This document shows, piece after piece, positions 5,201 to 47,834 of a stretch of 64,000 nucleotides of DNA (position 1 is the stretch's first letter; each line of letters starts with the position of its first letter). The notes beneath the pieces were generated by a model. The model was not told the origin of the DNA and ran no database searches. It saw only the letters and a list, made by a program, of their open reading frames with translations. Source of the stretch: an uncultured Verrucomicrobiota bacterium (GTDB lineage Bacteria; Verrucomicrobiota; Verrucomicrobiia; Palsa-1439; CAZOTB01); assembly GCA_964582645.1 (NCBI GenBank), contig CAZOTB010000006.1, positions 1,972 through 65,971 of the forward strand, given 5' to 3'. The position numbers and the translations under genes were made by a program.

Positions 5201-5956
5201 TTACGGTCCCCAGAAGTCGTAGCCGCCGTAGGCGCACCACTGATTCCAATCCGACGGCCAGGGCAGCGTGTTCTGCCACCATGCGCTGCCGAAGTTCATT
5301 GGCCCGCTGTTGTGGATGAACTCACCGTGCCCGTCCACGAAAACGAAGTTCAACCCTCGCCCTTGATGCCGTGGATACTCGTAGGTGCCGGATCCCCACT
5401 CGCCAAATGCCGGCCGATCGAGATAGCTCGGTTCAATGAAGTACCACGCCAGACACTCCGCCACCAGCACAGTGGTGTGCCGCCTTCTGGCCTCCGCGAG
5501 CGAATGCGTGGTGGCCGAGCCGGTGGCGAGCACGAATGCGCTGTTGGCTCCGTAGGGAACGCTGCCGCTCAGCCCCGCGCGGAGACTCGGACATCCGCGA
5601 CTTCGTTCGTTGCCATAAATGCGATTGATCAATCCATTCCCATTCCAGACGTTCGAGCCGCCGAGGTACGGAATGACCGCGACGTCCCATGCGTTCCCGC
5701 AGTGGTTGGTGTCGAGGTAGCCGTTGTTGTCCTCCGCGAGTAACTGCGTGCCGATGCCGACCTGCCGGAGATTGGCGAGACAGGCCGTGCGTTTGGCGGT
5801 TTCCCGGGCGTTCTGCAGAGCAGGCAAAAGCATCGCGGCGAGGATTGCGATGATCGCGACAACGACGAGGAGCTCGATGAGGGTGAAACTGGCCCGATGC
5901 TGGATTCTGGATGCTTGGTACTGGATACCCAGCATCAAGGATCGAGCATCCAGCAT
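5201..5956 (-). CDS. Prepilin-type N-terminal cleavage/methylation domain protein with DUF1559 (H-X9/10-DG) C-terminus
   Basis: [25 protein letters not shown]-terminal pilin-like helix and C-terminal [10 protein letters not shown]. The start is taken at the internal Met (MLDARS...) because the ORF track's 6016 start overlaps the upstream PEP-CTERM gene. Confidence 0.8.
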
Positions 5957-5970
5957 CTGCTCTCCACGGC

Positions 5971-23047: not shown

Positions 23048-25198
23048 CTAGTTTGTCCGTGATTGGTTCTGCGCCTTCAAAGTGCTGGTCACGGCGGCCG
23101 GATTGGCCTGCGCCGACTGGCGGACAACCACCGCCTGGTACAACCCAAGGCGCGGCAGCACCAGCCGCCGGCCCGCGAGCGGGAGCGGTTTCCCGTCCGG
23201 CTCTGATTGCGCTTGCGCCTCCAACTCTCCCAGCACCCCCCCCAGCTCGATTTCGATGTCGGCCAACTGCTCGCATTCGCCCGCCCCCGAAATGAAGTCG
23301 CCGGCATCGTACTGATGATTCAAGAAATGCAGCGTGATCGCGTCGCCCCGGCGGGTCGCCAGCACTTCGACGCATTCGTGACCGCGCAGGCGCACCGCTT
23401 GGCCGCCGAGCAGTTCGTTCAACAGGTTGATGGCCAGCCGGTGCGGCCAGGGATGCCGGGTCTGGTGTTCGTCGGCGCAGGTCAGTTGCAGCGCGCAGGC
23501 GATGACCCGGCCTTTGCCCACTTGATTGATCGTGATGCCCGGATGCCAATCGGCTTGCTCGCGCGTCGCCGGCCAGTTGGGCGGGTTTTGGATATCCGAC
23601 GTGCGCACCTTGTCCATGAACTGCGGCACCAGATGCGCCAGCGGCCGGGCCGTCGCGCAATGCAACACCTGGGCTTGGCCGCATTGGAAATACACCGGTT
23701 CATCGGCGAGCAATCCCGCGCTAATGGCGGGAGTCGCCGGCTGAAGATAAAATCCATACCCGCGCAACGTGCCGTGCGGCGCGCAGCCGACGAGCGATTC
23801 CAGCATGAACGGCCCGTCGGTGTTGCGGCGCGCCAGCGGGCCTTCGACCAACAACCGTCCGCCGTGTCGCACGTAAGCTTCGAGCGCGATGGCCAGTTCG
23901 TCGTCGATTTCGAGCGCGGCGGGCACGATCAGCGCCCGGGGCGCATGCGCCGCGTCGAGTGTGCGGACGATGGTGAAGAGGAAATGGCCGTTGCGCAGCC
24001 ATTCGACCCATTTCCAGATCGCGGTCGGGCGGTCAACGAGGCAGCACTGGCCGGCTTCAAGCAGGCCGATCTCGGCGACGGGCTGGCCGCCGGTGAGCAG
24101 GGGGCGGTTGGTCCGCACCCACGCGCCCCATTCGGCCAGCCGGTCCATGTTGCCGGCCGACAACCGGCCATCGGGGGCGTGATTGATGCCGAGAGTGTAC
24201 GTGCCGCCGCCGATCAAGGTGGCGAGCGATTCGAGCTGGATGAGCGTGAGCGGCTTGGCCACGTTGTGCGACCACTCCAGTTCGGCGCAACTCATCAATT
24301 CATACGGCCGCCCGTCCTGGGGCAACAACTTCGTCCACAGGCACCGGGCCGGCGGGTGGTGTGCCTCGCCGGTGTAGTAGTCGGAGAGCTCGTCCACCCG
24401 GTCGTTGAACGGGTGGCGCCGTTTGCCCGCACCGTTGAAGCTCAGCAGCAGCGGCCGCGGCAGCTTGAGCAGGTCGCGTTTCACTTCAATCAGGAAGCGC
24501 CGGTAGCTCTCCGCGCGGAACTCGTCGTGGCGCGTGGTACCGAATGCGTCGGTCAGATGCTCGCCGCCGAACCACTCCGAATAGGCCCGGTGACAGTGTT
24601 CGCAGAAACAGGTGTCCTGGCCCTCTTTCAGGTCACAAGCCGGCGGATGCGGCGGCAGATAGAGAATGTCGAGCCAGTAGCCCACGATCGGGTAACGCTC
24701 GGCCAGTTCACGCAGTTGGGCGCGCACGAAATCGCGGAACGGGCTGTTCACGCACAGCCAATGATAGTGGAAGAAGTACTTGTGGTCGGGCACGAGAACC
24801 CGGTCATGCACATCCCGAATGCGCCACTCGGGATGTTCGCTGCCCACGAGGCTGTTCAGCGAGAGCGAGTAGTAGGCGATGACGCGAATGTCGCGTTTGC
24901 GGCAGGCGGCCACCTGTTCGCCAAAGAAATCGCGCGTGGGCTGCGCCTTCGTGTGCGCCGACGGCCAAAGCTGGAAGCCGTCATGGTGCTGCGTGAGCAG
25001 CGTGACTGTCTCGAACCCGATCCTGGCCCACGTGGCCGCGTAGTGGTCGGGATCGAACTGACTCTTGTCCGCCGCCCATGCCGGCGAGATGAAATGGGGA
25101 ATGCCGCGGATGAGGTCCGTCTTGAGCCACGGAAACAGTCGCGCCACCTCTTCGGCGCTTCGCACCACATCGTCCGCCTGTGCTGGTATCAATGGCAT
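23048..25198 (-). CDS. GH29-like alpha-L-fucosidase domain protein with additional C-terminal domains (716 aa)
   Basis: HHDGFQLWPS motif typical of GH29 TIM-barrel fucosidases. Confidence 0.6.
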   Translation of the reverse strand: MPLIPAQADDVVRSAEEVARLFPWLKTDLIRGIPHFISPAWAADKSQFDPDHYAATWARIGFETVTLLTQHHDGFQLWPSAHTKAQPTRDFFGEQVAACRKRDIRVIAYYSLSLNSLVGSEHPEWRIRDVHDRVLVPDHKYFFHYHWLCVNSPFRDFVRAQLRELAERYPIVGYWLDILYLPPHPPACDLKEGQDTCFCEHCHRAYSEWFGGEHLTDAFGTTRHDEFRAESYRRFLIEVKRDLLKLPRPLLLSFNGAGKRRHPFNDRVDELSDYYTGEAHHPPARCLWTKLLPQDGRPYELMSCAELEWSHNVAKPLTLIQLESLATLIGGGTYTLGINHAPDGRLSAGNMDRLAEWGAWVRTNRPLLTGGQPVAEIGLLEAGQCCLVDRPTAIWKWVEWLRNGHFLFTIVRTLDAAHAPRALIVPAALEIDDELAIALEAYVRHGGRLLVEGPLARRNTDGPFMLESLVGCAPHGTLRGYGFYLQPATPAISAGLLADEPVYFQCGQAQVLHCATARPLAHLVPQFMDKVRTSDIQNPPNWPATREQADWHPGITINQVGKGRVIACALQLTCADEHQTRHPWPHRLAINLLNELLGGQAVRLRGHECVEVLATRRGDAITLHFLNHQYDAGDFISGAGECEQLADIEIELGGVLGELEAQAQSEPDGKPLPLAGRRLVLPRLGLYQAVVVRQSAQANPAAVTSTLKAQNQSRTN

Positions 25199-25282
25199 GA
25201 CAACGCCATCCTAGACATATCCCGTGGCCACTCAATGCAGAATCGGGCTGGGCCGATCAACGTGAATGAGTCACGGTATCCG

Positions 25283-26224
25283 CTACCCGAGGCGTGCCCT
25301 CTGTCGCAGGTAGGTTTGCAACAACTCCGCAAACGGCGTGGAAGTACGGGCGAGACAATATCCAATGCGGTTGGTGTGGCATGCGTTCTCGAGTTCGTGC
25401 ATGTACTCGCCCATCAACTGCCGGTAACGCTTGCGCACGTGACGCGGGTCGAGCTTGAGTTGCTCGAAGGTTTCCATGTCCTGAAAGATGGCTCGTCGGT
25501 CAAAGGTGAAATCAATCTCGGCATCGTCGAGCACGTGGAAGACGATGATGTCGTGCCGCAGATGCTGGAAATGTTTCAAGCCCTGGAGGATCTTCTGCGC
25601 ATCGTCGAGCAGGTCGCTGATGATGATGATCAACCCTCGGCGTTTGATGTTCGCGGCGAGCGCGTGCAGCACGGCGCCGGCATCGGTCTCGCCTCCCGGC
25701 TGGGCGTTGGCCAGCATCTCCAGGATCTTCTTCTTTTGGTTGGGCGTTGCCCGAGGGGGAAGGCTCCGGCGCAATTCCGTGTCGAACATGACCAAACCCG
25801 TGGCGTCCTGCTGCCGAAGAAGCAACTGCGTCAGACACGCCGCCAGGCACGAGCCGTAATGCAGCTTGGTGAGCGTGCCGCTGGTGAATCCCATCGAACC
25901 GCTGGTGTCGAGCAGGATGGTCGAGCGAAGATTGGTCTCAGCTTCGTACTGTTTGACGTAGTAGCGGTCGGTCTTGGCGAACACCTTCCAGTCAATGTGC
26001 CGAAGTTCGTCGCCCGGGGAGTACTCGCGGTGTTCGCTGAACTCGATGCTGAACCCGTGAAACGGGCTTTTGTGCATCCCGCTGATGAAACCCTCGACGA
26101 CGCGGCGCGCGAGCAGTTTGAGATCGCCGAGGCCGGTGACGATACGCGGGTCGGCAAGGTGCGGGGGGAGTTCGGAGGATGGCAGGCCTGTCGAGGATAG
26201 ACGATAGAGGATAGAGGATTGCAT
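25283..26224 (-). CDS. DUF58 family protein (vWA-like partner of MoxR)
   Basis: DUF58-like conserved core (FHGFSIEFSEHREYSPGDELRHIDWKVFAKTDRYYVKQYE) downstream of MoxR. The first 15 codons are encoded by the heptamer repeat. Confidence 0.85.
   Translation of the reverse strand: MQSSILYRLSSTGLPSSELPPHLADPRIVTGLGDLKLLARRVVEGFISGMHKSPFHGFSIEFSEHREYSPGDELRHIDWKVFAKTDRYYVKQYEAETNLRSTILLDTSGSMGFTSGTLTKLHYGSCLAACLTQLLLRQQDATGLVMFDTELRRSLPPRATPNQKKKILEMLANAQPGGETDAGAVLHALAANIKRRGLIIIISDLLDDAQKILQGLKHFQHLRHDIIVFHVLDDAEIDFTFDRRAIFQDMETFEQLKLDPRHVRKRYRQLMGEYMHELENACHTNRIGYCLARTSTPFAELLQTYLRQRARLG
26193..26218. repeat. GGATAGA-type heptamer tandem repeat (gaggatagacgatagaggatagagga), left partner of an inverted pair
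   Basis: Reverse complement of 26637..26662 with one mismatch. Confidence 0.85.
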
Positions 26225-26230
26225 TGCGGG

Positions 26231-26617
26231 CTAGCGAGAGGCGGTCCGACAAAAGTCGTCTGCACGCTCGATCATTCGATTCAGCATTGCGCCGACGTGT
26301 TGCCATCGGTCGTCCATTTCCCGGTGCTGCGCCAGGGTCAGGTAACCGCAGTCCACGGCGTGATCAAGCCAAGCCTGTGTTTCCATTGCTTCACCCAGAG
26401 CATCGTCAATCTTGCTGATAAAGGACGCCGGATACCGTCGGCGCGCCCAAGCTTCCGCGATCATCGCATTCACCGCGCGGGAGGAACGCCGTATCTGGTC
26501 GGTGAGTGAGTACTTCTCTTCGGGCGGAAATCCGTTTGTGATCAAGAATACCTTCTTTGCTTCTGCACGGGCGAGCTTGTAAACCTCCAAGTCCCGAAAA
26601 CTCCGAATAGCCGGCAT
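26231..26617 (-). CDS. Four-helix-bundle protein (23S rRNA intervening-sequence protein family, PF05635/TIGR02436-like)
   Basis: FRDLEVYKLARAEAKKVFLITNGFPPEEKYSLTDQIRRSSRAVNAMIAEAW matches the family signature. Strong RBS ggaaggag. Inserted between MoxR and DUF58. Confidence 0.85.
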   Translation of the reverse strand: MPAIRSFRDLEVYKLARAEAKKVFLITNGFPPEEKYSLTDQIRRSSRAVNAMIAEAWARRRYPASFISKIDDALGEAMETQAWLDHAVDCGYLTLAQHREMDDRWQHVGAMLNRMIERADDFCRTASR

Positions 26618-26636
26618 GAGTTGCTCCTTCCTGCGA

Positions 26637-26662
26637 TCCTCTATCCTCTATCCTCTATCCTC
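26637..26662. repeat. CCTCTAT heptamer tandem repeat (tcctctatcctctatcctctatcctc), right partner of the inverted pair
   Basis: Its reverse complement equals the 26193..26218 repeat with one mismatch. It lies in the 5' UTR of the four-helix-bundle gene. Confidence 0.85.
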
Positions 26663-27674
26663 GAGCTTTTGCGTAATCCGCTTCCGTGGGTTCGGGGACG
26701 TTCTGGAGCAACTGCTCGATGATGTTCACCGAAGAAATCCCTTTCGCTTCCGCAGCGAAACTCGGCAGGATGCGGTGACGCAATACCGGCTTGGCGACGG
26801 CGCGGATGTCTTCGCAGGAGACATTATAGTGGCCGTGCAGCGCGGCGTGAGCCTTCGCGCCGAGCACCAGGTACTGCACGGCGCGCGGGCCGGCGCCCCA
26901 ATCAATCAGTTGCTTCGCAAAATCAGCCGAGTCAGTTTCCTTGGGGCGTGTGGCGCGGACGAGGTTCACGGCGTAGCCGGCCACGTGCGGCGTGATCGGG
27001 ATCTCGCGGACGAGGCGCTGGAAGTTGATGATGTCCGCGCCGCTGAAAACTGCCTCGAGCGCGGGCTTCTCCATCCCGGTTGTTCGCAGAGCGATCTGCA
27101 GCTCTTCTTCCTTCGTGGGATACGTGATCGCCACTTTGAACATGAACCGGTCGAGTTGCGCCTCGGGCAACGGATATGTTCCTTCCTGCTCGATCGGGTT
27201 CTGCGTCGCGAGCACGAAGAATGGTTCGTCCAGTTTGTAGTCGCCGCCGCCGATGGTGATCTTGTGTTCCTGCATCGCTTCGAGCAAGGCAGCCTGCGTC
27301 TTGGGCGGGGTGCGGTTGATTTCGTCGGCGAGGATGATGTTGGCGAAAATCGGCCCGTGAATGAACCGCACGCTGCGTTTGCCGGTGGTCATGTCTTCCT
27401 CCATCACGTCCGTACCGAGAATGTCCGACGGCATCAGGTCGGGCGTGAACTGGATGCGCTTGAACTTGAGGTGCAGTAGCCGGGCGAGCGTCGAGATCAT
27501 CAACGTCTTCGCCAGCCCGGGCACGCCTTCGAGCAGGCAGTGTCCCCCGCAAAGCACGGTGGTGAGCAGTTCATCCACCACATGCGTCTGGCCGATGATG
27601 ACCTTGGACAATTCGGCCTGGATTTTGTCGCGGCCATCGCGAAGCAGTTCGATCGAGTCGGTTGTTTGTGTCAT
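26655..27674 (-). CDS. MoxR-family AAA+ ATPase
   Basis: Walker A GVPGLAKT, Walker B LADEINR and a MoxR-like C-terminus, 339 aa. Confidence 0.95.
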   Translation of the reverse strand: MTQTTDSIELLRDGRDKIQAELSKVIIGQTHVVDELLTTVLCGGHCLLEGVPGLAKTLMISTLARLLHLKFKRIQFTPDLMPSDILGTDVMEEDMTTGKRSVRFIHGPIFANIILADEINRTPPKTQAALLEAMQEHKITIGGGDYKLDEPFFVLATQNPIEQEGTYPLPEAQLDRFMFKVAITYPTKEEELQIALRTTGMEKPALEAVFSGADIINFQRLVREIPITPHVAGYAVNLVRATRPKETDSADFAKQLIDWGAGPRAVQYLVLGAKAHAALHGHYNVSCEDIRAVAKPVLRHRILPSFAAEAKGISSVNIIEQLLQNVPEPTEADYAKARG

Positions 27675-27890
27675 GATTTCAAGATTCTCCTATGGGACAA
27701 ACGCGGCGAGTTAAACATGGTGACGCAGAGAATGCCAAGCTTGAACTCCCTCGTCACCGAAACTTTTTTTCCTTCTATTTCGTGACACGATTTTCTGTTT
27801 GCCGTTTCGCAAAGGCCTTAGCCTGCGTCAAATCCAGAAGCGGGTCGTCAAGGCTATTTTCGTTTGTTTTCCTCAGCAAAAAGAAAGATT

Positions 27891-27917
27891 TTGACATGGG
27901 GGGGGGGCACCTATGGT
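27891..27917 (+). promoter_or_regulatory. Sigma70-like promoter candidate with a G10 homopolymer in the spacer (TTGACA - t G10 cacc - TATGGT)
   Basis: -35 hexamer at 27891-27896, -10 at 27912-27917, 15-nt spacer containing the G10 tract 27898-27907. It lies about 60 bp upstream of the lipoprotein start in an AT-rich intergenic region. Confidence 0.35.
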
Positions 27918-27976
27918 AGAGCCCACGACAGTTCGGAAAAGCGATTGTGAAACGACAAGGACAAGGCGCCGTCGGG

Positions 27977-29656
27977 ATGAGAGCGGTAATTTCAGTTCTG
28001 CTCGCGAGCGTGCTTCTCGTGGCGATCAGTGCATGCACCACGAGCAAGCAAGCCAAGCGTGAGAAGCAGCCCACGACTGAAACAGTGTTCGCGCTCCCGG
28101 AAGGTTTGCACGCGGAAGCGCAGTACCGGCCGGGAGTGGACTCCTCGAAATACCCACTGATCGAAGTCTATCTGCACAATCAAACGAGCCAGCCGGTGGA
28201 ATGGAAGCGTGCCTCTCTGAACGGGAACCAATTGCAGATGCTGACGAACGGGGTCGTGTGGTTCCAGTTCTATCCGACGGAGAAGGCCAATCCCGGTGAG
28301 ACGGTTCTCCTTCAAGTCAATCTGGTGGCGAATCCCCGGAACGAACAGACGGTTCGCTGTGAGACACAGGATGGGCGAATCATCGAAGTCAAACTGCCAC
28401 CCTTCTCAATACCTGCGGTGAAGATGGACGCGGTTACGTTCAGTTGGGACTTCCGTCAGATGTTCGTCGCGTATTCTCCGGGGAGCTACTTCGACTGCTC
28501 TCAGTTGGTGCCCTCGCGTGTTCTCGTGAATGGCGTGGATGCAACCGCAACTTCGGAACTCCTTTCCCCGCCCACTCTGAAAGAGCCTGCCTTTCTCCGA
28601 GTGAAGCTGCCGGAGCCGACCGAGCAAGGCCGCCCTATGTACGTGCGACTGGAGTTGAGGAATGGGATCGTGCGCCACTGTTTGGTTCGAGCTTGGAAGG
28701 GGTTTTTCCTCGACGCGTTCGCGGTGGACGAAAAGAATGCCAAGCTTCGCAAAGCTCTCGGGCTCGATCATCGCCCATTCGGCCGCCACTGCGGTGGCGA
28801 TCCAGCGTGCAATGATCTCGCGCTGGGCAGAAAGTACGGGGCATCCATGGATTCAGTCTTGGAAGAAAGAAAGGCTTCGTGGAAAGAAAAGGATAATCGC
28901 CTCAGCTACGTCTCCCTCTGTACAGCGGCCACGCCAAACGCAGCCTATTCCATCTATGGGCAGTGCATGGACGCGGCCCAAGCCAACCCTTATCGTCTGC
29001 ATTGGTCGCAAGAGGAAAAGTTTGTTGAAACGGAGGAGCGATACCTTCGCTGGTGCCGGCAGGCTGCTTCCCCTCGCCCATGGTTCTGGTTTCCAGAAAC
29101 CTTTGAAGTGCACGGTCGCATTCTGGAAGCCGAGGAGTTGCGCCTGCTGGCGTGCGCAGCGGTCGGCCAAGGGGTAAAAGGCATCAATTATTTCTGCCAT
29201 TCCTATGCTGGACCCCCTCCAGTCCATGGCTTCGATAAGAGTCCGAGGCTGCTTGCCGAAGTTAGAACTCTCAACCGTATGTTCAAAAAATACGAGCACA
29301 TCTTTTCGACCGCCATTCCAATTTCAGACGAAAGTTCTACCGATCAAGCGGATAAGATGGCTGTCAAGACACTCTGGTGCGGAGACCCATCTGGAGTCTT
29401 GGTCGTAATTCGCAACATGGACTATTCGACGGACCGCACTCCCAACGAGTACGGCTCCCATGCCCGATTCCATTGGAAGCCTAATAAAGAGCCGGCAAAA
29501 ATCAGTATTGGTAAGCCCATCTGGATGCCGCTGTGCAAGCATGGCTATGCAACTGATCTGCTAAGTGGAAGACAGGTTCATTACACCGTGAAGGATGCCG
29601 CGATATGGTTGGACATTCAACTGGACCTAGCGAGTCTCATTTTCATCCCGAGCTAA
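27977..29656 (+). CDS. Lipoprotein, function unknown (about 560 aa)
   Basis: MRAVISVLLASVLLVAISAC lipobox signal peptide with AAGGA upstream of ATG 27977. The track starts at an upstream GTG (27947). GC is lower than the flanks. Confidence 0.75.
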   Translation: MRAVISVLLASVLLVAISACTTSKQAKREKQPTTETVFALPEGLHAEAQYRPGVDSSKYPLIEVYLHNQTSQPVEWKRASLNGNQLQMLTNGVVWFQFYPTEKANPGETVLLQVNLVANPRNEQTVRCETQDGRIIEVKLPPFSIPAVKMDAVTFSWDFRQMFVAYSPGSYFDCSQLVPSRVLVNGVDATATSELLSPPTLKEPAFLRVKLPEPTEQGRPMYVRLELRNGIVRHCLVRAWKGFFLDAFAVDEKNAKLRKALGLDHRPFGRHCGGDPACNDLALGRKYGASMDSVLEERKASWKEKDNRLSYVSLCTAATPNAAYSIYGQCMDAAQANPYRLHWSQEEKFVETEERYLRWCRQAASPRPWFWFPETFEVHGRILEAEELRLLACAAVGQGVKGINYFCHSYAGPPPVHGFDKSPRLLAEVRTLNRMFKKYEHIFSTAIPISDESSTDQADKMAVKTLWCGDPSGVLVVIRNMDYSTDRTPNEYGSHARFHWKPNKEPAKISIGKPIWMPLCKHGYATDLLSGRQVHYTVKDAAIWLDIQLDLASLIFIPS

Positions 29657-29663
29657 AGGAGGA

Positions 29664-31478
29664 ATGCTGATGACAGCGATGACGAGAAACTTGAGCATTA
29701 AGTTGCGACACTATGGATTTTTGTTGAGTCTTGTGCTCGTCCAACATTGCTCTGCGCAGACTCCCGACGTGAGCCCGGACATCTCCATCTCTGTCGGCGG
29801 CGTTGCGCGAAGCCAACTTTGTGTGGGCGAACAAGCCACGTTCAGCGCCGAGAATCAGTGCACTGCTGATCCCGATGGCCCAATCAACTATTCTTGGAGT
29901 GGCGCAGTGTCGGGGACAAATCAAACCGTTTACGGATCTTTTACAACGACAGGGAACCGGACGGCTACAGTGAATGTCCATTACAATACAGCCGAGGGCG
30001 GCGTGTACGATGGTTCCACCAATTCACAGTTTACCGTTAAGACAGTATCTTCAATCACCTATGCGAAGAGCGCTGTTTGCCTCGGACAACAAGAACCTTT
30101 CCAGGTGGCGACCGATCCTGCAAATTGCTATGAAGGGATAACGATCACCGTTCCTGATGGCGAGCTCATATCCTACAGTACAAGTACGGGAATCGCCCAA
30201 GTAAAGTTGAACGTTCTTTCCACCGACAATAATGACAAGAAAACCGTCACGGCGAAGTGTGGGGATCCGTCCTGTTCAACCTGCACAGGCCAGGCAAGTA
30301 CTCAAGTTGTCGTGGCTAAAGTGGCCTCTATCACACGGTCGCCATCGGATGGTCCGACTACTGTTTGTAAGGATGAATTTCAGCAGTTTCAGGTGGAAAC
30401 CGAGCCAACCGGACATTACGATAAACCCATTGTTGTTTCCGCATTCGCGTCAGTTAATTATGATACGAATTCAGGGATTGCAACGGTGCACTTTACGAAT
30501 GCATCTCAGACCGCCGTTAATATTTGGGCGAGTTGCGGTCCTGACTCAAAAAACATCGAAACGACAGTGGTAGATGTCGGACCCATTTACGCGACATGCA
30601 CAAATAGAGTTGGAGCCGATGGTGGTCAGATAGGCTTTATGGTGACCCCAACGCCCTCAAATAGGCAGATCGAATGGCGCTACGAAGGAAGCTCTCAAGT
30701 GTGGACCGGTACTACTTTCACTGTTACAGCCCCCTCGGGAAATGGTTTCTTCACAGTGACAGCAAGCGACAAAGACTTGCCGACGTGCTCCGAGACTTTC
30801 GAGGTCGAGGTCGTGGGACATTGTGGTGCGAACTATCCGTGGGAAAATTTCGCCTACGATTCGACCGAAGAAGGAAGGCCGGCCAATTGCGGCGGAGACC
30901 TAGCTTTGTTTGAGCCGCCTCCATTTGCGGTTGCGATCACGGGCAATTACACTGCCTGCCATGGAGTGATCAGTAACACCACTGCATGGTTTCCCCGCAT
31001 AGTCGCACTCGGTTTCACCTATTACAAGGATGTGTGTTGCGGCAGTAGGACCGCTATTACAAACGCGACCATGGTCACGAGCAACGACTTCTGCAATGGC
31101 ATCTTGGCTGAACTTGAACCCCCTGGAGCGTATACAAATTACTGCGCGCCGACGTGCCTCGAAGACTACGTCAGCGTGGGCAACGATGCCTACTGGGCAA
31201 TCTGTACCAACCAGTGGGCGGTGGGAGAAGCTATAGTGGAATCCAAGACGAAGTCATTCGTCTGCATCCAGCGCGACGCCGTCGATGAGGCAGAACGTGA
31301 CCTGGAGGACGATGTCAACAGCGCATTACAGAGTGTCTACAACAACATTATCGCTCAATGGAATAGTCAGTTTGCTACGATTGAGGAAGCCGCCTACGAC
31401 GCTGAAGAGGCCTGCTTGCAGGCACTATCAAGCGAGATCGAACAAAAGGCCTATATTAATGGTTGGACGTGCCCTTGA
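29664..31478 (+). CDS. Secreted Cys-rich protein with internal Ig-like repeats and a distinct C-terminal Cys-rich domain ending ...WTCP
   Basis: Signal peptide present. About 85-aa internal repeats. GC about 47-50%. The C-terminal about 100 aa are homologous to the fragment at 34141..34671. Confidence 0.75.
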   Translation: MLMTAMTRNLSIKLRHYGFLLSLVLVQHCSAQTPDVSPDISISVGGVARSQLCVGEQATFSAENQCTADPDGPINYSWSGAVSGTNQTVYGSFTTTGNRTATVNVHYNTAEGGVYDGSTNSQFTVKTVSSITYAKSAVCLGQQEPFQVATDPANCYEGITITVPDGELISYSTSTGIAQVKLNVLSTDNNDKKTVTAKCGDPSCSTCTGQASTQVVVAKVASITRSPSDGPTTVCKDEFQQFQVETEPTGHYDKPIVVSAFASVNYDTNSGIATVHFTNASQTAVNIWASCGPDSKNIETTVVDVGPIYATCTNRVGADGGQIGFMVTPTPSNRQIEWRYEGSSQVWTGTTFTVTAPSGNGFFTVTASDKDLPTCSETFEVEVVGHCGANYPWENFAYDSTEEGRPANCGGDLALFEPPPFAVAITGNYTACHGVISNTTAWFPRIVALGFTYYKDVCCGSRTAITNATMVTSNDFCNGILAELEPPGAYTNYCAPTCLEDYVSVGNDAYWAICTNQWAVGEAIVESKTKSFVCIQRDAVDEAERDLEDDVNSALQSVYNNIIAQWNSQFATIEEAAYDAEEACLQALSSEIEQKAYINGWTCP

Positions 31479-31500
31479 TAACCGTGAAGAGGAGAAGAAT

Positions 31501-32313
31501 ATGAGCACAAACAGTATGCTAGACAGCGCCAACGGTCAGAGGCTAGTTGCGAGTTTAGTTGCGTGTTTCAGCCTTCTGGGATTGGGAGCCGGGGATTTAT
31601 CCGCCCAATCCCACGGGGGAATGAACAAGTCAACTCCTGAGAAGCAGTTGCTTTCAATGGGATTCGGAACATCCGCAGAAGACCTGCGTAACGCCCTGGG
31701 CAATTCCAACTTGCTGGCCAGGGTCTTCGCTACCCAATTTATCAAAGAGCAAAATGATAAAGCCTTCACCTCTGACATAAAGAAGCTCTTGGACGACAAG
31801 GAGTCGTGCGTTCGTGTTGAAGCCGCAATGGTATTGGCTCCATGGGGAGAAGCAAAGGCTTCGGAGGTCCTTCGTTCGGAGTTGCAGACTTCCGAAGATG
31901 TGAATGTAAGATTGCGTGCAGCGGGGGCACTGGCTGATGTTGGTGATAGCAGAGGGTTCGGCTTGGTCAAAGCCACCTTGCTTGATGAACGCTCTCCCGT
32001 GCAAACGTACGCCGCAACCATGATACAGAAGTTCGCCCGCTTCCGCGGCCAAGGCATAGACAGCCTCGCCGTTCAACTGCAAGCAATGGACATCGCTGTT
32101 AAGAAGGCCGAGAAGAAAGAAAGTGAGGGTGCGGTCAGACAAGCAGCATGGCTGTTCAGAGTCTTGGCGCATGACTTGGAGCAATCCGAGGACAGCCGGG
32201 CGGTGGCCAAGTTGCATGAGGCTTCCAAGTCGAAGGATCCCAAGATTCGTTTTGCCGCTGAACAAAGCCTGAAAAGAAGCGAGCAGAAGCAGGCTAGCGG
32301 GAAACAGCATTGA
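31501..32313 (+). CDS. Secreted HEAT/PBS-lyase-like repeat protein
   Basis: RBS GGAGAAG followed by ATG 31501. Signal peptide LVASLVACFSLLGLGAGDLSAQS. HEAT-like repeats. Paralog of 34727..35530. Confidence 0.75.
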   Translation: MSTNSMLDSANGQRLVASLVACFSLLGLGAGDLSAQSHGGMNKSTPEKQLLSMGFGTSAEDLRNALGNSNLLARVFATQFIKEQNDKAFTSDIKKLLDDKESCVRVEAAMVLAPWGEAKASEVLRSELQTSEDVNVRLRAAGALADVGDSRGFGLVKATLLDERSPVQTYAATMIQKFARFRGQGIDSLAVQLQAMDIAVKKAEKKESEGAVRQAAWLFRVLAHDLEQSEDSRAVAKLHEASKSKDPKIRFAAEQSLKRSEQKQASGKQH

Positions 32314-32363
32314 GATGGCTTAAAGCCTCAAAGCATTGAACCCAATGCGAGACGCGTCTCGGC

Positions 32364-32870
32364 TTGAACCGCTCGGGGCGCGGTTATACCATCGCGGGCC
32401 GGATGAGATGCTTGCGGATGAAGCAGTTTATAGCGTCGGCATGGACGAGGTCGAAATGCCTGACCAGCAAACTTAGCGAAATCCTCAAACACAACAATGC
32501 CTCTGGGTGGGCAACTTTTCTCGTGTCACTCGTGATGGTATACGCCCTCCTCCAGACCAACAGGGCCATCAAGCAGACCGCTGAGTCTATCGAACTCCAG
32601 AGGTCTGCTAACTCTAACGCTGCCGTACAACTGCGAATCGAGCAGGATACGAGGTTATACCCGGAACTAGAATGCCGGTGGGACACCATCAGCGGCCTCG
32701 TCCTCCGCAACGTGGGTACCGCGCCTGCGACGAACATCAATCTTCGCACTGCCGTTGTCTGCGTCACGTCCAATGTTTCATACGACTTCCGAGCGCGGCG
32801 GGGTCACATCTTCAATTTTCACAAAGGAATTTTCCGTCCCGCCAATCCTCAGTCGGTTTGTGACAATTGA
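32364..32870 (+). CDS. hypothetical protein with one TM helix
   Basis: ORF with a hydrophobic segment WATFLVSLVMVYALLQT. Low-GC island context. Confidence 0.4.
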   Translation: MNRSGRGYTIAGRMRCLRMKQFIASAWTRSKCLTSKLSEILKHNNASGWATFLVSLVMVYALLQTNRAIKQTAESIELQRSANSNAAVQLRIEQDTRLYPELECRWDTISGLVLRNVGTAPATNINLRTAVVCVTSNVSYDFRARRGHIFNFHKGIFRPANPQSVCDN

Positions 32871-32989
32871 AGATCAGACCCCGGCTGGCCCTGCCGAGCC
32901 GTGTGGCCTTTCGAAGATGCATTCGAAGATGCACTGGGAGAGGATCACGAAGGTTTCACAGCTTGCTACGTTTCAAGCGCTGATTCGTG

Positions 32990-34134: not shown

Positions 34135-34140
34135 ATCCGA

Positions 34141-34671
34141 GTGACAGGCATAAAAATCAAAGTTTTTATCAATGTTTGTCGGCCACCGCCGACGGCTGGT
34201 GTACCTTTCATAGAGGGAGCCGGCGATCCACAGATTAACTCAGGTAACGTTTGCTCTGTTCTTTGCAGCTTTACCCCTAATCAGACTGGTTGCGCACCGT
34301 ATTCGAACTTTGCTTCTGAGGACTGTCTCAAAGCTCATGAAGAACAACATTTTCAGGATTTTGACGATGAATTTGACTTTATCTGGGCGTATTATGAAGA
34401 TGAGATCGAAGACCTCCACGTCCCTTTTGCCTGTACAGACATGGATGACCCTGCGGAGGCTGTTGAAGCCATCTTTTGGTCCGAAGACGGCAACGGCATA
34501 GGGGATCAACTATCCGAAGCGTACCTCGCTGCTGCTGACATTTTCAATGATGCCACTTGGCGGGCTCAATCTGAAGTCAACGCAATCGCAGCAGAAAACA
34601 CTTGTTTATCAGGACAGCGGGCGCAAATCCAGCAGCGATTTGGCCAACCCAGTTGTCCGAGCTGCCCGTGA
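34141..34671 (+). CDS. Orphan C-terminal module homologous to the C-terminus of 29664..31478 (GTG-initiated at the IS630 right end, no signal peptide)
   Basis: Shared pattern CAP..., F[VA]C..D, A.W..Q....AA..E..CL......Q......CP, ending SCPSCP versus WTCP. The reading frame is closed by a stop 24 nt upstream inside the IS TIR. Confidence 0.45.
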   Translation: MTGIKIKVFINVCRPPPTAGVPFIEGAGDPQINSGNVCSVLCSFTPNQTGCAPYSNFASEDCLKAHEEQHFQDFDDEFDFIWAYYEDEIEDLHVPFACTDMDDPAEAVEAIFWSEDGNGIGDQLSEAYLAAADIFNDATWRAQSEVNAIAAENTCLSGQRAQIQQRFGQPSCPSCP

Positions 34672-34726
34672 AATAATGCTACAATACAATCTGCAAAGAA
34701 TGAGCGGAACAGAAGGGAGAATACAA

Positions 34727-35530: not shown

Positions 35531-35612
35531 GTTTAGGATGGGTTGTAATTATTGAAAATCTGATCGACTGTCATGGACTCATCCCAATCCATTCCACACA
35601 TTCGATTGTTTC

Positions 35613-36532: not shown

Positions 36533-39355
36533 CTATGGCGCCAGAAACACATCCGCCGCGTCCACGTAAATCCGCGTGCCGGCAGGGATGACTTTCCGCC
36601 CCTCCTTTGCCGAGCCGAGGAAGTGCATATATCCCTTGGGTTCGCCCGTGGTGGCCGGACCGGTGCGCCAACTGAACGTCCGCCACGGTTCGACGTTGTT
36701 GATCGGTTCAAGCCAGCCCCATTGCTGCAAGGTGACGGCAGGAGCGCCCACGATCGAGTACACACCATCGCTTTGCGTGGTCGAACGGCGCAGCTCCGAC
36801 CAGCGAAAATCCGCGTCGGTGCAGAGGATGTTACACCGCGCGAACAGCCGGTCGCCAATGCCGGTGGGAAATCGGATTGTGACGTACACGGGCGGGGCCA
36901 CCGCCTGGGGGAGTTCGATCTGCACACATTTGCGTCCGTCCGTTCCGAATCCATCCACGATGGAAAACTTCGCAGCCTGTGCCTTCGGCGGTTCGGCGGG
37001 CGTCGAGAACTCGACGTGCGCGATGGCGTTGCTCACCACCTCGGTTTTCTCGAATGATGGATCCGGCAACAGCGGCGTCGGCCAGTATCGTTTCGCCGCG
37101 TCGGCGAACAGCGCTTTGCTCTGGATCGCGTCCTTGACGAGCGCCTGGAGGGCGGTCGCTTCCTTGACGGCCTCCTCCTCCTTGGTTGTCTTAAGGACCG
37201 CCTCGACGAGCCCTGCGGCCTTCTCGTACTCCTTCTTGAAATAGGCCGCGCGAATCTCAAGCAAGGTCGAACGCAGCGCATACCGTCCGGTCGGCTCGGC
37301 CTTGGTCAAGGTCTTGAGTTCGGCGAGCGCAGCGTCGGTGTCCTGGGTTGCGAGCAGCAACTGCGCGTTCAGATACACCACGTCGGGATTCAATCGGGCA
37401 TCGGGAAACTCGAACACGAGGCTGTCGAAACTGGTGCGAACCTTGTCGGCGAGCGCGGTGATCGTGTCCCGGCTTCCGATTTCCGAGTAGCCGCCGGGAT
37501 CGAACACCATCTTCGTCAACTCGCCCACGCCCTGCCGCAAGGTGCTGTAGAGCGACCCGCGACGGATGGCCTGTTCCCGTTCGGTGCGTCCGTCCCCCAC
37601 CTCGACCAGTTTGGCTTCGTCGTAGGCCTTGCGCGCAGAAGCGAGGTCGCCTTGCTGCAGGAACGCATCGCCGAGCGCGATTTGCGCCGAGCGTTCCAGT
37701 TTGGGATCGTCGCCACCCTTGTCCTTGATAATCTGGTTGAACGCCTCGATGGACTGCGGATACCGAGCCGCGCGCAACTGCAGCTTCCCGATTTCCAGAC
37801 GAACTCTCGTCCGCAACGTCCGCTGCTTCTCGAGCTTGGCGTCCATCTGTTGCAGTTCCGCCACCGCGGCGTCCCACTGCCCGAGGTCGGCTTTTGCGTC
37901 GGCGATCTTTTGTCGCGCGGAAAGCTCCACCGTCGTCGGAACCGTGCCCGACTTCGTGAGGTACAATGGCGCGAGCTTCAGGATCGTCTCGGCGCGCAGC
38001 TTGCGGTCAGAGATTTGTTCGGCGATGGCGATCAACGTCCACAACGTCCCCGGCTCGTACTGGCCGAGCATCGGCGTGACGAGGCGAATCATCTCCTGCG
38101 CGGCAACGGGGCTGACCGAGTTGGACATCGGGATTTTCTGCTTTGGCAACGCCGAGAAACTGGTGGCGAGCACCACCTTTTGAAACTTCGATGCGCCCGC
38201 GGTGAGCGTGACGGTGTAGCGGCCCGGCTTGACGTACACGTGCGCCGGGTTCGGTTCGGCGCTCGTCGTTCCGTCGCCGAAGTCCCACTGATACGTCACG
38301 CCCTCCGTTTTTCCGACCGTGCGGTTGTGAAACCGCACCATCACGACCGGCTGGTCCGCGCCGAGAAGCATGTCGGTTTGGAAATCGTTGAAGAATGCCG
38401 CGGTCGCCTGATCGCACAGCCTGTAGTCGCGCACCATGCTGCCGACGACCGATGGATGCCACACCGGCGCGACCGGCTTCGCGACGAGGTTTGCATAGTG
38501 GTACTCGGGCCATGGCACCAGCCACGAAATGCCCGTCACGCCGAACCCGGACACGCGCGCCTGGAGAATTTCCAGCGCCTGCGTGCCGCGCGGTAGCAGC
38601 ACGTCGGCGATGCTTGGCGTCTTGACGGTCACGTCGGCAGGAGTCGAGGCCACCGGCTGCCCGTTCACCGCCAGAAAACCATGATCTTTCGCAAAGAGGC
38701 CAACCTTGTACACGTCTTCACGCGGGGTCTGCCACGCACCCCATGTGCGCGACATGAACTGGTTCTCGGACTCGTCGAACGGGTTGCAGCGGGATTGGGT
38801 GTCGTCAAGGACCGCCACACCCATGCTGGTCGCGGCGGCGCTCCACAGTTTCCGCATCGAGTCCCACGTGCTCGAATCGCCATCGGGGCGTGCACGCGTC
38901 TCGTAGAAGAGGCCGCGACCGAAGTTGGTCGGTGCCACTCCGCTGGTGAGCGATCCGCCGAAGAACAGATGCGCCGTGTCCTCTCCCGGCGGGACAGAGA
39001 ACAAAACCATGCTCGCGTTGAGCGGGTGGGTGTAGATAATTTCGATGGGGCGCGCGTTGCCCTTGGAGTCCGTCACGCGGACGTTCTGCGAACCCGCAGC
39101 GAGGATGCCACCGGAAAAGAAGCGAACGGCACAGACCGCAACGTCGTTGGTGGGACGCTCGCCGGACATCTCCACCCGGTAGCGAGCGACCGCGCCGTCC
39201 GGCCAGGGGACGTCGCCCTGCGCGAGGATGGAGGATAGAGGATAGAGGATGGCCGGGATCAGCCAACGCGCATTCTTGATGGCGGATTCCATTCTCCATC
39301 TTCCATTCTCCATCCTCCCGCGCTTCACAGCACACCTCCCGGGGGCGAGGTGCAC
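36533..39355 (-). CDS. Secreted PKD-domain and TPR-repeat protein (940 aa)
   Basis: PKD signature WDFGDGTTSAEPNPAHVYVKPGRYTVTL, followed by TPR-like helical repeats and an N-terminal signal-like leader. Confidence 0.85.
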   Translation of the reverse strand: MHLAPGRCAVKRGRMENGRWRMESAIKNARWLIPAILYPLSSILAQGDVPWPDGAVARYRVEMSGERPTNDVAVCAVRFFSGGILAAGSQNVRVTDSKGNARPIEIIYTHPLNASMVLFSVPPGEDTAHLFFGGSLTSGVAPTNFGRGLFYETRARPDGDSSTWDSMRKLWSAAATSMGVAVLDDTQSRCNPFDESENQFMSRTWGAWQTPREDVYKVGLFAKDHGFLAVNGQPVASTPADVTVKTPSIADVLLPRGTQALEILQARVSGFGVTGISWLVPWPEYHYANLVAKPVAPVWHPSVVGSMVRDYRLCDQATAAFFNDFQTDMLLGADQPVVMVRFHNRTVGKTEGVTYQWDFGDGTTSAEPNPAHVYVKPGRYTVTLTAGASKFQKVVLATSFSALPKQKIPMSNSVSPVAAQEMIRLVTPMLGQYEPGTLWTLIAIAEQISDRKLRAETILKLAPLYLTKSGTVPTTVELSARQKIADAKADLGQWDAAVAELQQMDAKLEKQRTLRTRVRLEIGKLQLRAARYPQSIEAFNQIIKDKGGDDPKLERSAQIALGDAFLQQGDLASARKAYDEAKLVEVGDGRTEREQAIRRGSLYSTLRQGVGELTKMVFDPGGYSEIGSRDTITALADKVRTSFDSLVFEFPDARLNPDVVYLNAQLLLATQDTDAALAELKTLTKAEPTGRYALRSTLLEIRAAYFKKEYEKAAGLVEAVLKTTKEEEAVKEATALQALVKDAIQSKALFADAAKRYWPTPLLPDPSFEKTEVVSNAIAHVEFSTPAEPPKAQAAKFSIVDGFGTDGRKCVQIELPQAVAPPVYVTIRFPTGIGDRLFARCNILCTDADFRWSELRRSTTQSDGVYSIVGAPAVTLQQWGWLEPINNVEPWRTFSWRTGPATTGEPKGYMHFLGSAKEGRKVIPAGTRIYVDAADVFLAP

Positions 39356-40548
39356 GCGACATAAAGCACGCCGTTCTTTGCGACCACCATGTCGTTGATC
39401 ATGGTCGCCTTCAGGTCAAACCGCTGCGGCTCTCCCTTGGGGAGGCCGTCTGCATCGAGGGAGTAAATCGAGAGAAGCGACCGCGAGTTGGCGATGCAGA
39501 GACGGTCGTGGACATCGTCCACGCACGCGAGGCGAACCGGATCCACCTGTACGAACTGAGGCACGCTCGTGAGCCGACCCTCGCGCGTGAGTTGATAAAT
39601 CCCCATCTCCGAGCCGCGGGCATTCGGGACGTACAGCTTCCGATGGCGGACGCTGACCGGCGGGGCAGAATTGTACTTGCTCTGCGTCGCGATCGCCTGT
39701 GTGAAGGAGAGGGCACGGCCATCTTCGGTGAACGTAAACACGATCTTGGTGGTGCCGACGTCGCTTCCATAACAACGCCGCCATTCCGGCACGCGCCTCC
39801 ATTCCGAGAGTCTGATCGGGGTCTTCAACTGGAAATCGGATGGCTGCCGCCCCGATCTCTTCGGCCTGGGCGCGCCGCGGCGTGGAGGGGGCGCCGGTTG
39901 AGTCTTCAAGGTCTGAACCAACTCCTCGTCCGCAACCGGCCAGAGGCTCACCCACGCGTGGCTTTCGCCGAAATACAGGAATCGTCCCAGCGGGTCCACG
40001 AACAAGGAGCGAATCGCCAAGGTGCGTCGCGTTGCCCGGAGTCGCTGCAAGGGTTCATGGGGCATCCCTTCCTCGTCCAAGGCCAGCGCGGCAACGAAGG
40101 CAACGTTGGTATCCTGTCGAAAGGTGGCGAGCTTATCGGGCGTGGCATTGACGTAGAGCTGCGCCTGGGTCGGGTCCACCGCGATGTCGGTGATCGCGTA
40201 CTGGGAACCCGGCAAGGGAACTCCCTCGACGATCCCATCGGCGTGTTGCCGGCGGCTGTCGGAAATCAGTCTGCCTTCGCCGTCGAGTTGGAACGTCGTC
40301 AACGCCATGCCGTTCGTCCTACCGGCAAGACCGACGTAGAGCAGCGGTTTTGTCGGATGCAACTCCACTGAACGCGCGCCGAGGACGGGGACCGGGATGA
40401 CGTGGGGAGGGAGTTCCTGCGCAAGACACCGGGTGAGAATGGAGGAAAGAAGATAGAGGATGGCAAAGCAGCTTGCGCGGCGAACCAGCGCCCTCTTCCC
40501 TCGTCCATTTTCCATCTTGAATTCGTTCATGGCGCGGGAATGACACAC
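39325..40548 (-). CDS. Secreted lactonase-like 7-bladed beta-propeller family protein
   Basis: Signal-like leader ...CFAILYLLSSILTRCLAQ and beta-propeller-like repeats. Overlaps the downstream gene by 31 bp. Confidence 0.7.
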   Translation of the reverse strand: MCHSRAMNEFKMENGRGKRALVRRASCFAILYLLSSILTRCLAQELPPHVIPVPVLGARSVELHPTKPLLYVGLAGRTNGMALTTFQLDGEGRLISDSRRQHADGIVEGVPLPGSQYAITDIAVDPTQAQLYVNATPDKLATFRQDTNVAFVAALALDEEGMPHEPLQRLRATRRTLAIRSLFVDPLGRFLYFGESHAWVSLWPVADEELVQTLKTQPAPPPRRGAPRPKRSGRQPSDFQLKTPIRLSEWRRVPEWRRCYGSDVGTTKIVFTFTEDGRALSFTQAIATQSKYNSAPPVSVRHRKLYVPNARGSEMGIYQLTREGRLTSVPQFVQVDPVRLACVDDVHDRLCIANSRSLLSIYSLDADGLPKGEPQRFDLKATMINDMVVAKNGVLYVACTSPPGGVL

Positions 40549-47197: not shown

Positions 47198-47296
47198 AGC
47201 AACATTGTAGGAGCCGTTCCCCGAACAGCGAACGTGGAAGATCGCGATTCGGGGAACTGCTCCTGCGAGTGAAGTGCGGGCTTGGGCAAAAGGCAA

Positions 47297-47370
<74 letters not shown>

Positions 47371-47423
47371 ATCAACGGCGGCAGAATGGTAGATGGGGAA
47401 TGGGAAATGGTCAATCAGTTCCC

Positions 47424-47834
47424 TCACGTCACCGGCTTCTTCCAGATCGGCACGACCTGTTTGAGACGATCAATCAAATACTGCGCTGCCTGAAACGCCT
47501 CACCGCGATGACCGGAGACCACGCACACGTAGAGCGATGGCTCGCCCACCCGGATTACGCCAACGCGATGGACCACCTTGAGCGAGGAGATCGGGAACTT
47601 CGCGAGCGTCTCGTCCATGATCTTGTGGAACTGAAACTCCGCCATCTCGCGATACGCCTCATACTCGAGCGCGGTGATGGGTTGTCCAGACTCCATGTCG
47701 CGCACGACGCCGAGAAACTCGACCACCGCGCCGCAATCGGAGGGAATGGCGCGAGCGCGCACCAATTGTTGCTGGTCAATCGCCTCCGGAGTAATGACCA
47801 ATTCCTTCTTCATCCTTCCTTCTTCATCCTTCAT
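47424..47834 (-). CDS. moaE: Molybdopterin synthase catalytic subunit MoaE
   Basis: MoaE-like length and conserved C-terminal region. Possible alternative start at the second Met (47813). Confidence 0.85.
   Translation of the reverse strand: MKDEEGRMKKELVITPEAIDQQQLVRARAIPSDCGAVVEFLGVVRDMESGQPITALEYEAYREMAEFQFHKIMDETLAKFPISSLKVVHRVGVIRVGEPSLYVCVVSGHRGEAFQAAQYLIDRLKQVVPIWKKPVT

Follow-up and report, generated by a model that had tools for sequence, protein, structure and literature searches.

How does a gene of the family PF05635 (23S_rRNA_IVP) come to lie in an operon, between the genes for MoxR and a DUF58 protein, with an inverted repeat around it? The question is raised by a stretch of 64,000 nucleotides from an uncultured Verrucomicrobiota bacterium (GenBank assembly GCA_964582645.1, contig CAZOTB010000006.1, positions 1,972 to 65,971 of the forward strand), called the window here. 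A first, sequence-only reading had noticed the arrangement and proposed that the gene and its repeats form a miniature mobile cassette. Intervening sequences (IVSs) of 23S rRNA that carry an open reading frame (ORF) have been known since about 1990, and their hosts include Leptospira, Coxiella burnetii, Brucella and Haemophilus. We know of no accepted explanation for their origin, their movement or the role of their protein. The answer that we favor, and hold to be probable, is that the window carries an IVS-type cassette outside rRNA: a PF05635 gene with inverted heptamer arrays, inserted at the fused stop/start junction of MoxR and DUF58.

Anatomy of the cassette

The three genes of the locus are all on the minus strand: the upstream host gene for the MoxR AAA+ ATPase (AAA_3; 26655..27674), the four-helix-bundle gene (26231..26617) and the downstream host gene for the DUF58/VWA protein (25283..26224), the host genes being identified by Pfam matches. 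The middle ORF is intact. Its 128-aa product matches PF05635 with E 1.8e-28 (99.3 bits, cut-off 33.8) and TIGR02436 with E 3.5e-25 (88.4 bits, cut-off 24) and, at the sequence level, the solved family members 2rld (E 6e-7) and 2gsc/XCC0516 (E 4e-6). Judged by these scores, it belongs to the PF05635/TIGR02436 four-helix-bundle family, and both the family first given for the gene and the coordinates first given for MoxR and DUF58 hold. So does the claim that it has a ribosome-binding site of its own: a Shine-Dalgarno sequence, GGAAGGAG, lies on the minus strand at 26624..26631, just inside the 5′ arm of the repeat and 6 nt before the ATG at 26617.

The repeat that brackets the gene is likewise as first described, and somewhat longer. 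On the plus strand, GAGGATAGACGATAGAGGATAGAGGA at 26193..26218 and TCCTCTATCCTCTATCCTCTATCCTC at 26637..26662 are complementary at 25 of 26 positions. A repeat search extends the inverted repeat to arms of 33 nt (26191-26223 and 26632-26664) that are 94% complementary, with 408 nt between them. Both arms are period-7 arrays of 3.9 copies each (Tandem Repeats Finder). With up to 3 mismatches, the 26-mer occurs three times in the window (0.00 expected from 100 shuffles), and its 14-mer core occurs 10 times (0.14 expected).

The arms overlap the coding ends of both neighbors, MoxR and DUF58. The 5′ arm (26632..26664, minus strand), found by inverted-repeat and tandem-repeat searches, is a (GAGGATN) array of about four units and reads CTCGA GGATAGA GGATAGA GGATAGA GGATCGCA on the coding strand. 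The former TGA stop of MoxR is now CGA, and the frame closes at a TAG within this arm (26655..26657); TAG is present in all three frames of the arm. The 3′ arm (26191..26223, minus strand), found by the same kind of search, is a (NATCCTC) array, reads TGCAA TCCTCTA TCCTCTA TCGTCTA TCCTCGA on the coding strand and is open in all three frames. It opens with ATGCAATCC, which restarts DUF58. The replacement start ATG (26222..26224, minus strand) comes from the cassette and stands at the arm's inner edge, and the ATG and the first ~10 codons (MQSSILYRLSS) lie inside it, the new N-terminus QSSILYRLSS being encoded by the arm. The DUF58 N-termini of relatives agree only from ..LPPHLADP onward, and for this reason the residues of the window protein that precede LPPHLADP are taken to be cassette-derived. 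The motif ATGC(A/C)ATCC at the start site recurs in six other loci (L004, L041, L056, L061, L108 and L125).

Other searches of the locus gave no matches: Rfam had none at 25000..28000 with E up to 1, no sigma-70-like promoter was found inside the cassette, PADLOC matched none of the three proteins to a defence system, and tblastn found no second four-helix-bundle copy in the 64-kb window.

Insertion and decay at one site

The closest DUF58 relatives are 80-94% identical to the window protein, after which identity drops to ~54%. The cassette is intact in the window and in L001 and L002, where DUF58 identity is 100%. At 93% identity, L200 has a gene-less hairpin made of (AAGGATG)5, a 45-nt loop and the inverse array, and the loop resembles the 3′ end of the gene region. 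Also at 93%, in L196-L199 (of which L196 and L198 were read in sequence), degenerate remains of the arms lie around an unrelated palindrome. At 84%, the heptamer arms of L004 are separated by a 146-nt spacer that holds a remnant of the gene: the first ~11 and the last ~28 codons, clearly alignable to the window copy, with codons ~11-101 deleted. Two relatives have an empty site: in L003 (82% identity) the MoxR and DUF58 genes share 4 nt (GTGTGA), and in L005 (81%) they lie 2 nt apart (TGA-ac-ATG).

Because of the empty sites in L003 and L005 and the decayed copies in L004, L200 and L196, the cassette at this junction is, by comparison of relatives, an insertion, as had been supposed of a gene inserted into a MoxR-DUF58 operon. 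In a distance tree of DUF58, the window groups with L196 and L200; L004 is sister to this group, and L003 and L005 branch outside it. The simplest history is one insertion in the ancestor of the window, L196, L200 and L004, followed by independent losses of the gene that left the hairpin. In the sister lineages the cassette is thus seen decaying, first to a remnant of the gene and then to a bare hairpin. The gene-carrying state is likely to be ancestral at this site. Empty, full, half-deleted and hairpin-only states are captured here at one orthologous position.

Target-site duplications were looked for in L004, L200 and L099, and none was consistent. TCGA borders both arms, yet it is itself palindromic and may be counted into the inverted repeat.

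The palindrome in the decayed cassettes of L196 (3100-3265) and L198 (495-660) is a different, GC-rich one (GAATGTGGGAGGCGCCTCCG...CGGAGGCGCCTCCCACATTC). It looks like a second type of repeat element nested in the decayed cassette.

Resemblance to 23S rRNA intervening sequences

The link to 23S rRNA IVSs had first been drawn through the protein family. That link stands, but the closest known thing is the ORF-carrying 23S IVS as a whole, since the entire architecture is alike. Both have a single PF05635/S23p ORF of ~120-140 aa in a total of ~430-480 nt, terminal inverted repeats of ~28-36 nt that form a long stem around the ORF, and tandem heptamers of variable copy number in the arm upstream of the ORF. 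In the IVS of Coxiella burnetii, for example, 3-4 GACAGAT heptamers, their number varying between strains, precede the S23p ORF; a 28-bp terminal stem closes the element and RNase III cleaves at the start of the first repeat (PMC4990558). The same authors note old proposals of the IVS as a mobile element (PMC4990558).

A case closer still in sequence was found on plasmid AZO_p2 of Azospirillum lipoferum 4B (L241, 548-1016), where a PF05635 ORF lies inside large-subunit (LSU) rRNA sequence. The host sequence matches the Rfam bacterial LSU rRNA model with 908 bits over model positions 666-1853, and the arms are 36 nt long, 86% complementary and composed of GAGGACG GATGACA GAGGACG GAGGACA and its inverse. 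From these matches, L241 is a genuine ORF-carrying 23S IVS that has the architecture of the window element and nearly the same unit (GAGGACN). Its ORF is unannotated in the incomplete gene table of the plasmid record.

The window element has the PF05635 ORF, the enclosing stem and the upstream tandem heptamers of an IVS, and it falls outside the 23S rRNA IVSs on location only: unlike them, it lies between two operon genes and not in helix 25 or 45. Its arms also differ from those of the rRNA IVSs in doubling as the upstream stop and as the downstream start and N-terminus. Excision by RNase III has been demonstrated for rRNA IVSs and would be expected of the window element by analogy. In the literature searched, from which most subscription journals were outside coverage, we found no description of such arrays outside rRNA or across the family.

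A unit that recurs across phyla

When one genome per species was scanned, 70 homologous loci with 60-77% amino-acid identity were found, one locus per genome. More than 10 phyla are represented, with Binatia, Planctomycetota, Verrucomicrobiota, Acidobacteriota, Chloroflexota, KSB1, Bacteroidota, Actinomycetota, Calditrichota, Lentisphaerota and 'Deltaproteobacteria' among the lineages. In almost all loci an array of (GAGGATN)n precedes the ORF and one of (NATCCTC)n follows it. The number of units ranges from 2 to 14, the seventh base is free, and many loci share the outer ends CGAGGAT...ATCCTCG. The inverted repeat between the flanks is stronger than in all 30 shuffles in 48 of 56 loci, which bears out the expectation that other four-helix-bundle genes would lie in the same kind of repeat. 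Shuffling and flank density provided the null models; pairing flanks from different loci was useless as a null (maximum 49) because nearly all loci share the same heptamer.

A strict array rule was also applied (at least 3 units, at most 1 mismatch in each, the upstream array within 170 nt). Under it the upstream array is present in 36/54 loci, against 0.6% expected from the density of arrays elsewhere in the same loci (0.073 per kb), and both arrays are present in 28/54. In the wrong orientation the same set has no upstream array and a single downstream one. The loci that fail the rule mostly have a variant unit or fewer than 3 units. Variant units are altered on both arms jointly: GTGGATN/NATCCAC in L020, L022, L024 and L027, GTGAATN/NATTCAC in L053, and GTGATTG/CAATCAC in L050 and L052. 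We take it as shown by these counts that the gene and its inverted heptamer arms travel together as a unit across more than 10 phyla.

In the PF05635 family as a whole, inverted arrays are, on present sampling, common and not universal. One family member (L133) lies between inverted octamer arrays, (GGGGACAR)n, and two others, picked for odd predicted protein tails, have (CGGTGAT)n and (GACAACR)n arms. Of seven copies on cyanobacterial plasmids, four lie between inverted G-rich arrays of 7-9-nt units, a fifth has its arrays in direct orientation and the remaining two lack arrays.

Could the gene be a resident one that never moved? It might have acquired Shine-Dalgarno/start repeats by slippage at a coupled junction, or it might be an orphan Avd gene of a diversity-generating retroelement (DGR). 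GAGGATG does combine a Shine-Dalgarno sequence with an ATG, the arrays lie exactly at stop/start junctions, and the protein weakly matches bAvd and the DGR Avd model. Residence is contradicted by the empty sites in L003 and L005, by the same gene and arms beside unrelated neighbors in more than 10 phyla and by the same architecture inside a 23S rRNA gene, where there is no coding junction. The orphan Avd variant is further opposed by a score of 26.7 bits against the Avd equivalog model NF033474 (cut-off 80) and by the lack of a reverse transcriptase (RT) domain among the scanned neighbors; template and variable repeats were not specifically searched for. We find a non-mobile origin of either kind hardly credible.

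A classical DNA transposon or miniature inverted-repeat transposable element (MITE) is the next explanation to consider. The arms would then be terminal inverted repeats for a transposase encoded elsewhere, and the four-helix-bundle gene would be cargo. Inverted termini are present, presence and absence differ between relatives, short gene-less derivatives exist and the outer ends are common to many loci. However, the termini are tandem arrays of variable length with a free base, unlike defined transposase sites, and orthologous copies persist over ~15% host protein divergence. No transposase was seen in or beside the 70 loci (flanks inspected), nor within ~5 kb in the window. No target-site duplication is unambiguous, the bordering TCGA being palindromic, and the element is not multi-copy within genomes (one locus per genome scanned). 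Such a transposon is in our view quite unlikely, and of the 'terminal inverted repeats' of the sequence-only reading the inversion stands but not the likeness to fixed-sequence transposon ends.

The cassette outside rRNA remains the reading that we prefer, and the term 'mobile cassette' can be kept for it in a restricted sense. It describes a history of insertion and of spread across phyla, and it does not extend to a transposition mechanism, which is not demonstrated; the restriction is made because neither a transposase nor a clear target duplication was found, and each genome gave a single copy of the subfamily.

Several individual loci deserve mention. Two PF05635 genes with no detectable arrays (L231 and L233) are yet wedged between co-directional operon genes: ActD and cytochrome c of an alternative complex III operon, and two ABC permease genes. 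In L232, L238 and L044 the arrays that flank the four-helix-bundle gene are direct, not inverted, and L232 has a second, roughly complementary array type outside each direct array; the direct arrays suggest tandem or nested elements. A neighbor gene with the C-terminus ..SGFIKQLYR is convergent to the cassette in L008, L009, L012 and L013, and co-directional and upstream in L042, which would fit either independent insertions in both orientations or an inversion between the arms. In Verrucomicrobiota, two orthologous sites are occupied repeatedly, one upstream of an NAD-dependent epimerase (..VLVTGGAGFIGSH; L041, L048, L056 and L061) and the other between UbiX and UbiA (L031, L039 and L099). 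At both, the 3′ arm gives an N-terminus of the MPSS/MSSPSSIL type each time.

Hairpins without the gene

The heptamer arrays also occur alone. Metagenome contigs were scanned for four GAGGATN units, and the 80 loci among the matches listed were chosen only for the array. Among them are 28 gene-less hairpins and one gene-carrying pair, L099 at the UbiX|UbiA junction; the other loci have single arrays, and L133 has its PF05635 family member 2 kb from the array. The gaps of the 28 gene-less pairs are 8-157 nt, all but three of them at most 55 nt. Eight further gene-less hairpins lie in the flanks of four-helix-bundle loci. The purine-rich arm comes first in 28/28 of these metagenome hairpins, in 3/3 viral contigs and in 8/8 genome-locus flanks. 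The repeats are not exclusive to the gene, since gene-less hairpins outnumber the gene-carrying pair 28 to 1 among the matches listed. That the repeats belong to the gene, as had been proposed, is borne out by the recurrent unit across phyla but not by these numbers.

Arm spacing is bimodal, at 8-60 nt or at 394-528 nt, and the longer space is always filled by the four-helix-bundle gene; no other class of cargo was seen among the array pairs examined. The predicted hairpins consist of 6-bp blocks with a mismatch at the free base between blocks. Of four that were folded, three gave z = -4.2 to -5.5, and a degenerate one (40435..40525) was shuffle-like at z = -1.3. Arrays 1165 nt apart in L132 were considered as flanking another cargo and rejected, no credible ORF lying between them.

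Two of the three gene-less hairpins in the window have replaced ancestral signal peptides. The first (39220..39321, minus strand) has 33-nt arms that are 82% complementary and a 36-nt loop. It lies 3 codons into a 940-aa PKD/TPR protein (ORF 36533..39355), where its 3′ arm encodes the hydrophobic core AILYPLSSIL and its 5′ arm MENGRWRME; the N-terminus is MKRFLAGLVCLLGAATASAQ in L003, which lacks the hairpin, and MKRGRMENGRWRMESAIKNARWLIPAILYPLSSILAQ in the window. The second, a degenerate one (40435..40512, minus strand; 19-nt arms, 79% complementary), lies 2 codons into a 407-aa protein (ORF 39325..40548) and 2 codons past an ATGA stop/start overlap with an FGE-sulfatase gene. Here the N-terminus is MNLLRFIILCPVFALAA in L003 without the hairpin and MNEFKMENGRGKRALVRRASCFAILYLLSSILTRCLAQ in the window with it. 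Both hairpins are placed 2-3 codons past starts at overlapping stop/start junctions, where they have taken the place of the hydrophobic core of the signal peptide. Because they are absent from L003, these hairpins are taken to be insertions themselves. A further gene-less hairpin, with the variant unit (CTGGATN)/(NATCCAG), lies on the minus strand at 5896..5957 (29-nt arms, 83% complementary, 4-nt loop, z = -4.4), in the leader and 5′ end of a prepilin-type DUF1559 gene, whose ATG comes from one of the hairpin units.

These hairpins raise the possibility that the order of events should be turned around, with the heptamer hairpin as the primary dispersed repeat. The single-copy gene would then be either a trans-acting partner or a passenger that settled in a loop. 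The model for such a partnership is REPIN-RAYT, which Bertels and Rainey in 2011 and Nunvar and colleagues in 2010 are said to have described, and in which hairpin doublets reportedly accompany a single-copy transposase gene flanked by the same repeats. The likeness lies in many short hairpins at junctions and in intergenic regions, together with one gene per genome inside inverted copies of the same repeat. The excess of gene-less over gene-carrying pairs and the eight hairpins in locus flanks speak for such a REPIN-like repeat with a RAYT-like partner, as do the two inserted hairpins of the window, the single subfamily match per genome in 70 genomes and the binding of RNA stem-loops by Avd-type proteins. 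However, the flanked gene encodes a PF05635 helical bundle and not an IS200/IS605-type (Y1) tyrosine transposase; the 128-aa bundle has no known nuclease or recombinase motif. The arms are tandem heptamer arrays, unlike the fixed repetitive extragenic palindromic (REP) sequence. At one site, moreover, hairpins demonstrably derive from gene-carrying units: both gene ends survive in the sister locus L004, and the L200 loop is similar to the gene's 3′ region. Bimodal spacing and a single cargo class also argue against random settling. We consider a primary hairpin possible but doubtful.

Another likeness is to the short tandemly repeated repetitive (STRR) sequences of cyanobacteria, which Mazel and colleagues reportedly described in 1990 as tandem heptanucleotide arrays dispersed in genomes. 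Dispersed tandem heptamers are common to both, and the cyanobacterial plasmid PF05635 genes are also found in inverted short tandem arrays. The unit sequences differ from STRR, the cyanobacterial arrays here being of the GCAGGGG type with 7-9-nt units.

A wider interpretation can be built on the cassette. PF05635 genes and heptamer hairpins may form one widespread, unrecognised class of mobile elements that includes the 23S IVSs and perhaps STRR-type repeats. In this class the cassette with its gene would be autonomous or the founder, and bare hairpins would derive from it; an Avd-like pentamer would bind the stem-loop of the arms and aid dispersal, possibly via an RNA intermediate; and a unit that is not a multiple of three would be an adaptation for harmless landing. 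We offer this tentatively and consider it rather improbable as a whole. If it were true, such a unit would land harmlessly in any frame at gene junctions and even donate start codons and signal-peptide cores.

Several points matter beyond this interpretation. An ORF with inverted heptamer arrays exists outside rRNA, at operon junctions, and the unit is conserved across many phyla. Remnants of the unit have been co-opted as start codons and signal peptides. The old puzzle of the IVS becomes testable, through the stem in mRNA as an RNase III substrate, binding of a pentamer to the stem, and hairpin populations that track the gene. For annotation, N-terminal extensions such as SSILYPLSSIL or MENGRWRME should be treated with caution as repeat-derived.

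How the cassette may work

The build of the arms suggests how an insertion between overlapping genes could be borne. An array of (NATCCTC)n can contain no stop codon in any frame, whatever the base at N. In (GAGGATN)n, N=A gives TAG, N=T gives TGA and N=G gives ATG, and three units cover all three frames because 7 mod 3 = 1. Insertion would be tolerated because of this build: the 5′ arm closes the frames and the 3′ arm is free of stops and carries an ATG. Shine-Dalgarno-like sites also recur along the 5′ arm, which abuts the ATG of the ORF in many loci. Stop and start are supplied in the same manner at the UbiX|UbiA junctions (L099, L039 and L031) and the epimerase sites (L041, L048, L056 and L061). 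Counts of 11/15 for the stop and 8/12 for the start are indicative only, as they come from an over-strict period-7 detector and 16 loci with both arrays.

At the MoxR|DUF58 junction, the 5′ arm stops MoxR and the ATG of the 3′ arm re-initiates DUF58, whose first ~10 residues are now arm-encoded. The cassette is presumably co-transcribed with the operon. In the transcript the arms could pair into an RNA stem of ~33 bp with the whole gene inside it; in the minimum-energy fold of 26170..26690 (minus strand), as in the centroid fold, the arm stem closes the ORF (z = -2.75). By analogy with rRNA IVSs, RNase III may cut this stem, and the cut would set the four-helix-bundle mRNA free or regulate it, and would part the message of MoxR from that of DUF58. 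The four-helix-bundle protein may itself bind the stem, since its DGR homologue Avd binds RNA stem-loops.

A number of observations weigh against this account, either in its mechanism or in its generality. Co-transcription, stem formation and RNase III cleavage are all steps that we infer for the window element. The arms mismatch at the free seventh base in many loci, which would split the stem into 6-bp blocks, a pattern that agrees equally well with repeated protein-binding sites and with a duplex. About one quarter of the cassettes appear to be antisense to their neighbors, some with a -10-like motif of their own (the calls of neighbor orientation are rough, being based on longest-ORF heuristics in high-GC DNA). 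Because of these antisense cassettes and -10-like motifs, read-through from an operon is not a general requirement. Distant PF05635 genes picked regardless of their termini have inverted arrays in only 2/4 cases and none in the other 2/4, and the arrays themselves are mostly found without the gene among the matches listed. Finally, neither a recombinase nor a clear target duplication was found, and the 70 loci scanned represent one copy of the subfamily per genome. We nevertheless continue to regard an IVS-type cassette outside rRNA as the probable description of the window element.

The four-helix-bundle protein and its relatives

The window protein is 70-82% identical to homologues in other phyla. 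Its best 120 relatives are all at least 70% identical, and the named ones belong to metagenome-assembled genomes of Binatia and Deltaproteobacteria. With 5480 cluster representatives at E up to 0.001, the protein family is very large, and we know of no established function for it outside DGRs. Avd of Bordetella phage BPP-1 (bAvd) is of the same superfamily (PF05635 / PF22296) and is a pentameric four-helix-bundle barrel. In DGRs, Avd binds RNA stem-loops (bioRxiv 10.1101/2023.10.23.563531). Unlike Avd, the window protein is far under the Avd equivalog cut-off and no RT is found among its scanned neighbors. These neighbors are, downstream, DUF58, a fucosidase-like protein and three products without a Pfam hit; the upstream ORFs are also without Pfam hits.

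As to viral carriage, 2.9 million viral contigs yielded no homologue of this subfamily, only 27 array-bearing stretches. One of these (L219, with 480 nt between paired arrays) was considered as a viral cassette and rejected, as no PF05635 gene is enclosed.

Other repeats and rearrangements in the window

The MoaE gene (47424..47834) was examined as a second cargo and rejected, the flanking period-7 arrays not being complementary (best inverted repeat, 11 nt). One of these arrays (47802-47838), purine-rich and of period 7/14 (AAGGATG/GAAGGAA), lies between MoaD and MoaE, and the second (47385-47410) between MoaE and tRNA-Arg(CCG) at 47296..47371. Two other tandem repeats in the window are unrelated in sequence to the heptamers: GCACTCAG x8.8 at 59441-59510, with superimposed periods of 16 and 24 nt, and a 21-nt unit x2.9 at 35700-35759.

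The region upstream of MoxR also differs between relatives. In L003 the PKD/TPR gene is directly upstream of MoxR, and in the window ~9 kb (~27700-36500) separates the two. The first two ORFs of this stretch (27947..29656 and 29664..31478) are on the opposite strand and have no Pfam match. Judged against L003, DNA has been rearranged or inserted beside the promoter region of MoxR.

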